From IMG/VR virus record IMGVR_UViG_3300030106_002948, positions 1 to 25,901 of that record: a stretch of DNA of 25,901 nucleotides; one strand, given 5' to 3'. The notes under the pieces were generated by a model. It searched no databases, was not told the origin of the DNA, and saw nothing but the letters and a program-made list of their open reading frames with translations. Numbering within the stretch: position 1 is the first letter of the stretch; the number at the start of each line of letters is the position of its first letter. This stretch comes from a virus (lineage: Duplodnaviria > Caudoviricetes). Below are positions 2,499 through 13,269 of this stretch, piece after piece. A program made the translations under genes and the position numbers.

Positions 2499-2717
2499 TC
2501 AGTAATTGTAAGTGATGTCGTTAACATGAGTAATCGTGTGCTCATCGATGAGGTCTTTCACTTTTTCTGCGAAAGCGTGCGCGTCTTCCTCTGAGCAAGC
2601 GAGTACGCGAATCGATTGGTACGTCTCAGGGTGTCCGTTTAAATCTTCCAGCGCCACGTCGTAAACATTGCTGCCGTCAGATAGTTTGTGCCTCGCGACG
2701 TGAATGTTGATATCCAT
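2499..2717 (-). CDS. Hypothetical protein (72 aa)
   Basis: ORF in operon orientation with TAATG coupling and a purine-rich RBS. Confidence 0.7.
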   Translation of the reverse strand: MDINIHVARHKLSDGSNVYDVALEDLNGHPETYQSIRVLACSEEDAHAFAEKVKDLIDEHTITHVNDITYNY

Positions 2718-2881
2718 TAGATTCCCCCCTTGTGCTTGGGGTGGCGGCGGAAGGAGCCACGCCCCTTGCGAGGCGCAACTTTCTTTTGCTGGAACTGCCC
2801 GCCTTGTAGCGCTGAAGCTATGGGCGAGCGGTGCTTGAGCGCATTAAACCGGCGCTCTTCGGCTTTCGATGTAAACTTCAT
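2717..2881 (-). CDS. arfA: ArfA-like alternative ribosome-rescue factor (54 aa, not in ORF track)
   Basis: MKFTSKAEERRFNALKHRSPIASALQGGQFQQKKVAPRKGRGSFRRHPKHKGGI aligns by eye with the E. coli ArfA core [32 protein letters not shown]. ATGA and TAATG overlaps on both sides. Confidence 0.7.
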   Translation of the reverse strand: MKFTSKAEERRFNALKHRSPIASALQGGQFQQKKVAPRKGRGSFRRHPKHKGGI

Positions 2882-3488: not shown

Positions 3489-4148
3489 TTACGCGGCGTC
3501 CTTCATCTCCGCGCTGTTGATGGCGTCCACCAAGGTCGCGGCGACATCCGCCGCACCGGGGAGGATCAAAGCGACGGCGTCGAGTAGCACCTGCGCGGCG
3601 TCGTCGTCGGCGACAGTGCCAGTCGATACCCGCTTGCCCGTCACGGTGATGTCACCAGCCTTCGCACCCGCTGCCTTGAGGGCGGCGATTGCGAGGGCCT
3701 GAGCCGGGGTCCGCTCTTCCTTGGGGTTGAGCAAGGCCACCAGTTTGGATTGGGTGGTGATCTCAAGGGCGTCGAAGGTGGCCGAGATTTCTTGCGTGAA
3801 GTTGCCGACATTGCTGTGGCGGTCAGCCGCCTCGACGGCGTTGCCGAATTCGGCGTGGCGAGCAAACTTTATGGCGTTCTCCGCGAGGAGTTTCGCCTTG
3901 GCTTCTTTCATGCCCATGTCCATGATCATCTGGCGGAAGCGACCAGCGACGACTTTGCGGCCCTTGAAGTTCTTTTCGTCAAGGCCAAAAGACTTCGCGA
4001 CGACTGCGAGATGTGCAATTGTGAAGACCTTGTTGGTCTCAGGGTTGAGCTTCTCGCGGAGGTCCGCAATCTCAACCTCTTTGGTCTGTCCGAGAACGAA
4101 CTCGGTGTGGGCGGCGTCGAAGAAAATAGCTGCAGGGGACTGTGTCAT
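3489..4148 (-). CDS. Hypothetical protein, first gene of the leftward operon (219 aa)
   Basis: Long ORF with GAGGTGA RBS; no family recognised. Confidence 0.8.
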   Translation of the reverse strand: MTQSPAAIFFDAAHTEFVLGQTKEVEIADLREKLNPETNKVFTIAHLAVVAKSFGLDEKNFKGRKVVAGRFRQMIMDMGMKEAKAKLLAENAIKFARHAEFGNAVEAADRHSNVGNFTQEISATFDALEITTQSKLVALLNPKEERTPAQALAIAALKAAGAKAGDITVTGKRVSTGTVADDDAAQVLLDAVALILPGAADVAATLVDAINSAEMKDAA

Positions 4149-4167
4149 GGTATCACCTCATGTGTGT

Positions 4168-4237
4168 GTGTTTCGGCCATGCTTGGCCCAAGGCGCAGGA
4201 TTGCGCTCATCAGCGGTGCAGCGTCAGCACCGGACAC
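4168..4237 (-). ncRNA. Type III hammerhead ribozyme, variant with branched stem II
   Basis: Minus: GUGUC^-CGGUGC(UGACGCU)GCACCG-CUGAUGA-GCGCA(AUCC)UGCGC-CUUG-GGCCA(AGCA)UGGCC-GAAACAC. Complete CUGAUGA/GAAA/GUC core, 6-bp stem I and 4-bp stem III. Predicted cleavage between 4233 and 4232. Confidence 0.8.
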
Positions 4238-4240
4238 GTT

Positions 4241-4508
4241 GACCGGGCGGCGGTGAAGTTGGCGACCGTGTGTCGCCCTCGCGTTCAATTGCTAGGCTGA
4301 AGGTAATGCGGCATCGCCACCGTCCCGGTGTTCCCCGCCTCTGGTTTCCTACGCCAGCGTCGGCGGGTGTTTGTTGTACCAGCCCGGCGATTTACAAGAG
4401 ATGTCCGGGTCTGCGGGGCGCTCGTCTGGTTGGCCCTTGCCCCTCTGGGGGGTCTTCCTTCTGGGATGTTTGGGACTTTGCGCCCCGGCCCCTCAGCGGC
4501 CTTGGCCC
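4241..4508 (-). ncRNA. Highly structured 5' leader or candidate ncRNA
   Basis: Nested inverted repeats 4242-4247/4324-4329, 4251-4255/4318-4322, 4261-4266/4272-4277, 4334-4339/4362-4367, 4383-4387/4405-4409 and 4414-4421/4480-4487; no convincing ORF. Confidence 0.45.
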
Positions 4509-4539
4509 ATCTTATCCCACACTCGAAACACAATGTAAA
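4509..4539 (-). promoter_or_regulatory. Possible sigma70-like leftward (early) promoter
   Basis: Minus TTTACA...TAAGAT with a long 19-nt spacer and an AT-rich upstream tract. Confidence 0.35.
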
Positions 4540-4606
4540 CCCACTTTTTACACATTTAGTGCTTTTTTTTGCACATTGCCTGAAACCCGCAGAAAACGTA
4601 CATTTG

Positions 4607-4626
4607 TTGGGTTATATTTAACCTGA
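4607..4626. promoter_or_regulatory. Palindromic site, copy 6
   Basis: TTGGGTTATATTTAACCTGA, 11 nt upstream of the TerS ATG. Confidence 0.8.
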
Positions 4627-4637
4627 AAGACGCGGAT

Positions 4638-5168
4638 ATGAGCGACGACGACAAAAATAATTCGGACGACGAAGCGCCTAAATTAACACTTTTGGCGGGT
4701 GGCAAGGGCGCGGACGCTGAGAAGCCGAGACCTGCGAAGCGCAAGCTAACGGCAAAGCAGGAGCGATTCCTCGCGGGATTGATCAGAGGGCAGTCGCAGT
4801 ACGATGCGTATTGCGCGGCCTACAATGCCGAGGGGATGAAGCGCAGCGCAATCGATACTGAGGCGTGGCGACTTGCGGCCCACCCGGAGATCAGCCGGAG
4901 ATTGCATGCCCATCATGCGTCTATTGAGCGGGCTGCGTCCGCCTCCGCACTCTCCCGGCGGCGGCTCGTTCTTGAGCGGCTTGAGCATGAGGCGGTCAAC
5001 GCGGAGAGCGACAGCGCTCGGGTGCGGGCGTTGGAGCTGCTCGGCAAGACCCACGATGTGGGCTTGTTCATCGAGCGCATTGAAACCGACAGCGGCGACC
5101 GCTCGCCTGACGAGCTACGCCGCGAATTGCAGGACAAGCTGACCGCGCTGCTCGGTCGCTCGGGTTAA
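4638..5168 (+). CDS. terS: Terminase small subunit
   Basis: LTAKQERF...DAY..AY HTH pattern and ARVRALELLGK oligomerisation motif typical of TerS. Confidence 0.8.
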   Translation: MSDDDKNNSDDEAPKLTLLAGGKGADAEKPRPAKRKLTAKQERFLAGLIRGQSQYDAYCAAYNAEGMKRSAIDTEAWRLAAHPEISRRLHAHHASIERAASASALSRRRLVLERLEHEAVNAESDSARVRALELLGKTHDVGLFIERIETDSGDRSPDELRRELQDKLTALLGRSG

Positions 5169-5179
5169 AAATAACCCGG
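5160..5179. promoter_or_regulatory. Palindromic site, copy 7 (overlaps the TerS stop)
   Basis: TCGGGTTAAAAATAACCCGG. Confidence 0.8.
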
Positions 5180-5362
5180 CGGTGGTGCTGCCGTTCTCTC
5201 AGGAAAATCGGGCCACCGGGTCACCCCTTGTAGCCACACTATCGGCTGGGGCTGGGGGTGCGGGGGCCACCCCCCTGCAATTGTCAGCGCGAGGGTGCCG
5301 GGCATACACACTATTTCACACAAATAATCACAGCATTTTCATGGCTAGGGGGGTACCCCCAT

Positions 5363-5887
5363 TTAGGTACCATTCTGGCCCACGAATATAGTATTGCCTG
5401 TATAATTTTTATCGAATTGGTACCATGCACAATCTTCTTTACCCACATATGGTGAGTTTTCGATCCACTTGATCCTTCCTACGCTAATGATCTTCTTGCA
5501 TAGGTGCATGTACGGTGCGCTTTGCTTGGTGTGCGCCCAAGCTGCATCGAACAACAGGTAGGTTGGTGCGATACCAGATAGTCTTACTATGATTTTATGG
5601 AGTATATCTCTAGACCACGGAGGATTTGTGATGAATGCTTCTCCCATACACGATAGCTGGTGTGTTGCATCACCTGTTTTGATTGTGGGTATCTGTGGTT
5701 CTATGTCTGACGCTCTACTACAGACTTTACCATATCCCTTTAAGATACTTATCAGTGCTCCATTACCTGCACATGGTTCTTCGTAACGAGTGATATCCGC
5801 TATATGCGGTACGAGAGGGATAACTGCCTTGGGCGGTGTCGGATAAAAATCTCTTTCGGCCCGGTCAAAATTTGATCTTCTGCCCAT
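5363..5887 (-). CDS. Orphan DNA amino (probably N6-adenine) methyltransferase
   Basis: DFYPTP, SAM-binding EPCAGNG, SDI and catalytic ITNPPW motifs. Confidence 0.85.
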   Translation of the reverse strand: MGRRSNFDRAERDFYPTPPKAVIPLVPHIADITRYEEPCAGNGALISILKGYGKVCSRASDIEPQIPTIKTGDATHQLSCMGEAFITNPPWSRDILHKIIVRLSGIAPTYLLFDAAWAHTKQSAPYMHLCKKIISVGRIKWIENSPYVGKEDCAWYQFDKNYTGNTIFVGQNGT

Positions 5888-13062: not shown

Positions 13063-13269
13063 GTGCCTATAACGGAAAACGTCTATGAGGTATTCCAAAA
13101 GAACCTCAGGACGTACATGAATGAGAAGGCTGACTTCTTGGCTACTGGTGGTGCGAGTAGCTTTGAAGAGTATAACAAGGCTGTTGGAGTTATTCAGGGC
13201 CTTGCATTGGCCGAAAGAGAGCTTATCGATCTCTTTGAGGCTTTGCGTAAAGGAGAAGAGGATGACTGA
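13063..13269 (+). CDS. Small head-region hypothetical protein
   Basis: GTG start after AGGTGA; L..GG...FEEY...G..GL pattern recalled between portal and GroES in related phages. Confidence 0.75.
   Translation: MPITENVYEVFQKNLRTYMNEKADFLATGGASSFEEYNKAVGVIQGLALAERELIDLFEALRKGEEDD

Follow-up and report, generated by a model that had tools for sequence, protein, structure and literature searches.

The stretch of DNA analyzed here (the window, 25,901 nucleotides) is an entire viral record and represents a fragment of the genome of an uncultured, marine-type tailed phage. Its minus strand carries, at positions 4168..4237, a type III hammerhead-like RNA with all core bases present and an 18-nucleotide (nt) module inserted at the A9/G10.1 joint. 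The element is real and conserved. The reading favored here is that this module-bearing RNA probably undergoes signal-independent self-cleavage 3' of C4233 and drops the leader of the transcript; self-cleavage of the window RNA as such is predicted with high confidence.

On the minus strand, the 5' strand of stem III (4234..4237, including the U16.1-A15.1 pair) forms 4 bp with 4171-4168. The GUC triplet (4235-4233) conforms to the NUH rule with U16.1-A15.1 present, and the predicted cut site lies between 4233 (C17 of GUC) and 4232. Stem I follows with 6 bp (4232-4227 with 4219-4214; whole hairpin, 4214..4232) and a 7-nt loop ending in GCU (4222-4220). The core strand from C3 to A9, CUGAUGA, occupies 4207..4213 and is followed by the insert (4189..4206), composed of a 5-bp hairpin (4206-4193) and a CUUG linker (4192-4189). 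The true stem II (4175..4188) shows 5 bp with G10.1-C11.1 at the base and an AGCA loop; pairing with loop I is predicted for the AGC of this loop (4183-4181). The remaining positions, 4168..4174, contain G12-A13-A14, A15.1, and the 3' strand of stem III, with GAAA at 4174-4171. A CA-rich spacer and a Shine-Dalgarno sequence complete the region (4153..4167), with GAGGUGA at 4159-4153, 8 nt past stem III. A sequence-only reading of this DNA had described a full core in type III order on the minus strand, placed just before a ribosome-binding site, and every element that it listed is found at its place.

The window thus possesses the C3-U4-G5-A6-N7-G8-A9 and G12-A13-A14 segments of the hammerhead core, covarying stems I to III, together with a G10.1-C11.1 pair next to G12. 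Its blocks run in the order S-C-G and not in one of the noncircular orders SGC, CSG, and GCS. All four helices appear in the minimum-energy fold of the 70-mer, in which pair probabilities are 0.76 to 1.0 for stem I and both hairpins and ∼0.5 for stem III; the latter value falls to 0.01 to 0.02 when the leader is part of the folded RNA. Weak stems III are common among natural hammerheads, as reported by Perreault et al. (PMC3088659). The folding energy of the element is unremarkable (z score of -0.63). A descriptor allowing any insert after A9 matches the window once and matches none of 300 Markov-resampled windows. A second window match of model R1, at 13135-13220 (20 bits), was rejected, as it falls within the GroES-like gene and has no C3.

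A search with the terminase small subunit yielded seven loci, of which six reach the hammerhead site. An intact hammerhead precedes a homologue of gene 3489..4148 in all six (five distinct sequences), found without any RNA query and with an intact CUGAUGA strand in each; core and stems are kept at all six. Three of these loci (L003, L006, and L008) contain an 18-nt insert and keep every core base; the identical L004 and L005 have no insert, and L007 has a single U. In L004, L007, and L067, the insert is absent or 1 nt long before the same gene as that in the window. A hairpin identical to the distal one of the window directly follows A9 in the insert-less L004 and L052. Because L004 keeps this identical distal hairpin, the latter is assigned as stem II, and the proximal hairpin with CUUG is assigned as the insert. 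The earlier description of a hammerhead with two hairpins in place of one stem II, one of them extra, therefore holds with a refinement as to which of the two is which. Two other assignments were rejected: the proximal hairpin as stem II, because only the distal hairpin is retained in relatives without an insert, and a single helix closing both hairpins, as implied by Rfam local alignments, because its second pair would be a C-C mismatch in the window. A one-step branch-migration isomer, with the insert between 10.1 and 10.2, is possible by sequence in 40 of the 43 one-hairpin cores but is 12 to 14 kcal/mol worse in 31 of 31 cases, with energies from a model without coaxial stacking; the A-U first pair of L111 also speaks against it.

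Pattern scans of viral, metagenome, and GTDB contigs extended the comparison. The collected set comprises at least 384 loci in addition to the window, many of them the same contig twice; at least 176 passed the descriptor, giving at least 83 distinct cores from one widespread phage family. None of the 68 pattern matches in GTDB genomes, obtained with a pattern demanding C or G after A9, passed the descriptor. The conservation of the core and loop motifs in the 83-core set is partly built in, because the core, together with one loop motif or both, was prescribed in most scan patterns. In the last viral scan, neither loop was constrained, and 20 of its 21 loci fold as the family of the window does. 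All 57 long-insert cores listed share a loop I of 7 nt with U as its first base, and in all of them stem II is closed at its base by a G-C pair.

Insert sizes among the 83 cores listed are 0 nt (3 cores), 1 nt (23), 14 to 21 nt (43), and 24 to 37 nt (14); inserts of 2 to 13 nt are absent among the matches listed, with sizes of 2 to 6 nt covered by only three scans. These cores comprise 26 with 0 to 1 nt, 43 with one hairpin, and 14 with two hairpins. The single-base insert is U in 18 of 23 cores listed. The descriptor set no requirement on insert structure; the helix nevertheless begins at the base right after A9 in 32 of 33 distinct one-hairpin inserts, compared with a mean of 10.7 and a maximum of 18 in 1,000 shuffles. 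The first base of one-hairpin inserts is G in 40 of 43 cores, and their 3' ends are mostly 4-nt C-N-N-G linkers (CUUG in 22 cores, CACG in 3, CUAG in 3, CCUG in 2, and CUCG in 1), besides one UUCG and seven 2-nt linkers. Two-hairpin inserts begin with C in 14 of 14 cases, a base that cannot pair with C11.1. In 11 of the 14, both arms have at least 3 bp, and no unpaired base separates them from A9, from each other, or from G10.1 (shuffle mean of 0.34, maximum of 3); by eye, they represent about five lineages.

Covariation was assessed in an alignment of 33 distinct one-hairpin members, in which related sequences are counted more than once. Pairing is seen in 97.6% of all cells, and both partners have changed in 16 of 23 pairs; none of 500 shuffles attains the observed covariation, and slid partners pair in 31 to 42% of cells. 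Stem I is paired in 100% of cells with compensatory changes in five of six pairs, stem II pairs in 98.8% of cells, stem III shows compensatory changes at its two outer pairs, and the insert helix shows them in four of four counted pairs. Compensatory changes in related phage contigs, proposed earlier as a check, are thus present in every helix. U16.1-A15.1 is UA in 33 of 33 members, as the descriptor required. The predicted contact between loop I and loop II, also part of the sequence-only reading, is suggested by one clean compensatory case: GCU/AGC pairs in 94.9% of cells, a motif fixed by most scan patterns, and changes to GCC/GGC in L399 from the free-loop scan. The contact is shifted by one base in the near-identical L209 and L261, and L011 shows a mismatch.

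These data bear on the idea that the insert cripples catalysis and that copies with an insert are retained solely for their part in the leader structure. No known alignment exceeds 1 to 2 nt at the A9/G10.1 joint (PMC10085705), and a saltern hammerhead was impaired by two bases inserted elsewhere in its core (PMC3088659). Nevertheless, the insert-bearing L003, L006, and L008 retain their complete cores, and stems I and II are maintained in the 33-member alignment at the levels given above, which leaves this idea with a very slight probability.

The comparison suggests how the hammerhead fold could accommodate the insert. In known hammerheads, A9 pairs with G12 atop G10.1-C11.1 (PMC11300833). 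In the window, G12 directly follows C11.1, so that both pairs stay possible. The backbone would exit the core 3' of A9, pass through a side helix, and reenter at G10.1, while the A9-G12 pair would stack on stem II as before and the GCU/AGC loop contact would dock stems I and II. In members with two hairpins, a four-way junction would arise from the two flush arms of the side helix, whereas in one-hairpin members the second arm has likely shrunk to a C-N-N-G cap; C-N-N-G mini-loops presumably form a C-G pair. Comparison of sequences shows the ribozyme to be the constant part, with an optional insert that is gained, lost, or doubled at a fixed position while the core stays, and the fold and insert position are shown in the same way.

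Homologues of gene 3489..4148 are preceded by 22 distinct cores, with inserts of 0, 1, 15, 18, 19, 26, 36, and 37 nt. On a tree of 18 downstream proteins (the truncated L042, L260, L269, and L274 were left out), the three insert states need at least four changes, and well-supported branches force at least two changes for each state. The states are not clustered beyond shuffles, 34 of 200 of which give a value as low. The tree has long branches, so that its deep order is unsure, and recombination could give the same pattern.

The insert might act as a switch, with a protein, RNA, or ligand at the side helix turning cleavage on or off as in a natural allosteric hammerhead. Cleavage is controlled by engineered aptamers placed at the base of stem II (PMC2777235), which is also the site of the insert, and the geometry of the insert is strongly kept, with the CUUG linker in 22 of the 43 one-hairpin cores listed. 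In contrast, insert stems and loops (3 to 8 nt) vary freely and have unrelated sequences, and the repeated, unclustered changes of insert state on the 18-protein tree also argue against a switch. A partner in the leader had been suggested as well, namely, a pairing of GCCUUGG in the insert with positions 4499-4505. The 7-nt match exists, but 402 of 1,000 dinucleotide shuffles of the leader contain one as long; the site is changed in the closest relative, L001, which has an identical insert and an otherwise close leader, and the pairing is not common to other relatives. Complementarity of a 260-nt leader to the insert at a P value of ≤0.05 occurs in only 2 of 19 insert loci and at different places. 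Neither a sequence-conserved binding module nor a conserved alternative pairing, as expected of a riboswitch, is found. Because the insert keeps its pairing rather than its sequence and the leader pairing is explained by chance, a switch is improbable, and rather than a sensor, the insert most likely represents an expansion that is tolerated or aids folding. A bolder proposal, rather unlikely at present, regards the A9/G10.1 joint as a natural plug-in port at which phages swap one- and two-hairpin modules; the four-way junction would set folding speed or bind a factor from the phage or its host, and these RNAs would be the first natural hammerheads with cutting tuned or switched by a module inside the core.

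The family shares with type III hammerheads of RF00008 the strand order, CUGANGA and GAAA, GUC, and the U16.1-A15.1 and G10.1-C11.1 pairs, and would also share the predicted contact between loops I and II, but differs in the structured insert of 14 to 37 nt that parts A9 from G10.1. Searches with Rfam hammerhead models, proposed earlier as a check, did not recover the element: Rfam 15 gives no hammerhead at the gathering score over the window and none by E value over 3900-5200. RF00008 matches 2 of 20 family loci at ∼33 bits, compared with a cutoff of 48.5, and none of the 10 insert-less loci among them at E values of up to 1. Since insert-less relatives fail the gathering cutoff too, the miss reflects the narrow range of the model. 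In the three-way junction of hammerheads, A9 is at most 1 to 2 nt from stem II; because 18 nt intervene in the window, the RNA is filed here as a new structural variant and not as a member of RF00008.

The insertion point itself has a precedent in the (+) hammerhead of CChMVd, which contains an extra A10 between A9 and G10.1; a U at this joint raised cleavage 3- to 4-fold, while C or G was harmful (PMC3705267). One extra base at the same point occurs in 23 of the 83 family cores listed, in 18 as U, but the family carries whole hairpins there and belongs to DNA phages. This parallel and the still possible A9-G12 and G10.1-C11.1 pairs favor probable cleavage despite the insert. Other variants alter the three-way junction and likewise keep the core: the SGC and CSG permutations reorder the blocks (PMC10085705), and the pseudoknot hammerhead swaps helix II for a pseudoknot (PMC11300833). 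Both retain the joint between CUGAnGA and stem II, whereas the window family keeps the canonical order and opens this joint. The 2023 permutation search describes known alignments with at most 1 to 2 nt between CUGAnGA and the neighboring stems and, because no alignment exceeded this distance, assumed CUGAnGA to be inseparable from these stems (PMC10085705). No hairpin at the A9/G10.1 joint is described in the open-access text consulted, which included passages of the hammerhead papers cited here and of PMC12192606, PMC13481778, and bioRxiv 10.64898/2026.09.16.752053. Insert-less family members may already be present in published alignments.

In its placement, the element resembles hammerheads located before genes of phages and prophages, such as HHphage of the haloviruses HF1 and HF2, which lies 13 nt before the first open reading frame (ORF) of an early transcript (PMC3088659). 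The position before a start codon and the proposed role in processing are shared, but the core variants given in that report are substitutions or 1- to 2-nt insertions at other positions. The family also differs from hammerhead arrays: a single copy occurs in each of five records searched whole. Two insert-bearing copies in tandem are present in L072 (673-739 and 1303-1369), each preceding a different gene, and in L209 (472-546 and 957-1027). Other hammerheads were observed in two loci. L007 contains, around 2622 on the minus strand and before the next gene, another hammerhead-like motif, whose stem I region is long; the window has no counterpart of it. L067 contains at 393-462, on the minus strand, a type II hammerhead above the Rfam cutoff (50.6 bits), ∼1 kb from the family ribozyme.

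Cutting after C4233 would create a message that starts with the stem I hairpin and a 5'-OH, 84 nt 5' of the start codon, since the 5'-most base of the 3' product is, in the type III order, the first base of stem I. A 5'-OH and a 5'-terminal hairpin slow 5'-end-dependent decay. The likely purpose would be to provide the message with a protected, uniform 5' end and to make translation of the next gene independent of a variable leader, similar to the effect of engineered RiboJ. RiboJ raised mRNA about 2-fold and protein 2- to 10-fold (PMC6206723). Both consist of a hammerhead and an extra hairpin 5' of a ribosome-binding site, and the window RNA, like RiboJ, would remove a variable leader; RiboJ is engineered and carries the hairpin 3' of the ribozyme, while the window RNA is natural and has the hairpin inside the core. 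A Shine-Dalgarno-like word and a start codon, sought with a loose pattern without a control, follow within 60 nt in 67 of the 83 cores listed (47 of 57 insert cores and 20 of 26 insert-less cores). Since 10 of the 57 and 6 of the 26 have no start site nearby, a role at the mRNA end cannot cover all members. The predicted accessibility of the ribosome-binding site changes on cutting from 0.63 to 0.58 in the window and by more than 0.15 in only 2 of 22 loci. Unmasking of the ribosome-binding site was therefore rejected, and the nearly unchanged accessibility fits end processing. The large differences between leaders before the same gene fit an insulating role. In one metatranscriptome run, one contig matches 4294-4443 exactly and another matches 3754-3875 at ∼90%; none spans the ribozyme.

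Cutting might instead destabilize the message, with the 5'-OH product degraded as after cleavage of glmS, which leads to decay by cellular RNases (PMC6765202). Expression of the first gene would then be pulsed. Two Pelagibacter phages are among those with the closest cultured terminases, and the 5' exonuclease RNase J is present in many alphaproteobacteria; however, a 6-bp hairpin begins with the very first base of the 3' product, which has no unpaired 5' tail. The absence of such a tail should hinder 5'-end attack. In a halovirus, an early transcript mapped within 3 nt of the hammerhead cut site is a lasting species (PMC3088659). A destabilizing function thus appears very improbable, and a protected, uniform 5' end remains the preferred role of cutting.

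The predicted 5' cleavage product is a structured leader of ∼270 nt (4238..4508, minus strand) that is likely noncoding. Aligned to that of L001, it shows hairpin changes that keep the pairing, in addition to indels, and it has no Rfam match. Upstream lies an inferred promoter-like site (4509..4540, minus strand), divergent from the terminase small-subunit gene at 4638. A strict σ70 scan did not detect it; a loose -35/-10 pattern, used without a control, occurs 150 to 340 nt upstream in 12 of the 22 loci of the 3489..4148 family, including the window, and resembles the alphaproteobacterial housekeeping consensus. Leaders of the window (4238-4508) and its relatives are mosaics of common hairpin modules in differing combinations and possibly represent an undescribed family of phage noncoding RNAs.

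A small H-type pseudoknot is found near the 5' end of the leader upstream of 15 of the 83 ribozymes listed (L004:3639-3684, L007:3828-3873, L044:1799-1842, and L086:1516-1561, all on the minus strand, L002:2692-2737 on the plus strand, and 10 more). It consists of a short stem whose loop pairs with a 4-mer past an A-rich linker. In 13 aligned sequences, 100% of cells are paired, with compensatory changes in both helices, the rows having been chosen by that pairing. The pseudoknot has no Rfam match in the loci scanned and was not found in the leader of the window by the pattern used.

Leader release may matter too, as leaders are structured and 15 of them share this covarying pseudoknot. The leader could even be the main product, with the ribozyme generating the 3' end of a structured phage RNA of 100 to 300 nt and any effect on the message being secondary. 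This is consistent with the pseudoknot, with the absence of a gene end within 60 nt upstream in 58 of the 67 cores with enough flank (16 more are short-flanked), and with the 16 of 83 cores listed that have no start site nearby. Leader length and sequence, however, vary widely before the same gene, nine cores, including the L013-L032 group, lie leaderless directly between two genes, and the leader of the window shows no pseudoknot with the pattern used. As a main function, a leader product is unlikely while keeping some credibility; it is compatible with the preferred reading, in which the message receives a defined 5' end, and both can hold together. In L013, L014, L016, L020, and L032, a GC-rich hairpin adjoins stem III right past the stop codon of the previous gene; the upstream cleavage product would thereby carry a cap at its 3' end.

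The hammerhead occupies the gap between gene 3489..4148 and the divergent terminase small-subunit gene. The former, on the minus strand with its ATG at 4148, is the first gene after the leader and encodes 219 amino acids; its product has no Pfam, PHROG, or confident Atlas family and represents a phage protein family. The transcript is presumably early. Small genes lie on the minus strand, left of 4148. The annotated plus strand codes for the small (4638) and large (7912) terminase subunits and for portal, GroES-like, major head, and SU10-type adaptor proteins. The closest cultured terminases, 54 to 58% identical, belong to 023Pt_psg01, DSL-LC04, and the Pelagibacter phages HTVC027P and HTVC023P (∼54% for the latter two). 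Searches for cultured phages by blastn (three queries) and by tblastn (the downstream gene) returned nothing useful, and model R1, run without a positive control, matched none of the four closest cultured relatives.

Further features of the record were observed. A palindromic 14-bp motif, RGTTAWWWWTAACY, occurs in 10 copies in the window (147, 1407, 1789, 2391, 3426, 4610, 5163, 13037, 19059, and 22485) and in none of 100 shuffles. Its sites lie mostly in gaps or just 5' of ribosome-binding sites, and it is also found upstream of the terminase small subunit in relatives; it is likely an operator or a phage-specific promoter element. A 54-amino-acid ORF (2717-2881, minus strand) shows a weak match to the ribosome rescue factor ArfA (23.7 bits versus a Pfam cutoff of 25.5). 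Another ORF (5363-5887, minus strand), on the strand opposite to that of the neighboring genes, aligns with a DNA methyltransferase profile, but only over the second half of the latter (positions 201-371 of 458).

Hammerheads before phage genes have been known since 2011, and the placement and likely role of the present family are of that known kind. The new part is an expandable core joint that accepts up to 37 nt of many unrelated sequences. If the RNAs of this family cut, current descriptors and Rfam models overlook a ribozyme class. The hammerhead core would then possess an unrecognized tolerant port, into which aptamers could be engineered while the contact between loops I and II stays undisturbed. 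According to reviews, the function of self-cleaving RNAs in bacteria and phages is largely open (PMC6765202); if the reading is true, the natural pairs with and without an insert before the same gene would provide a ready test of this function.
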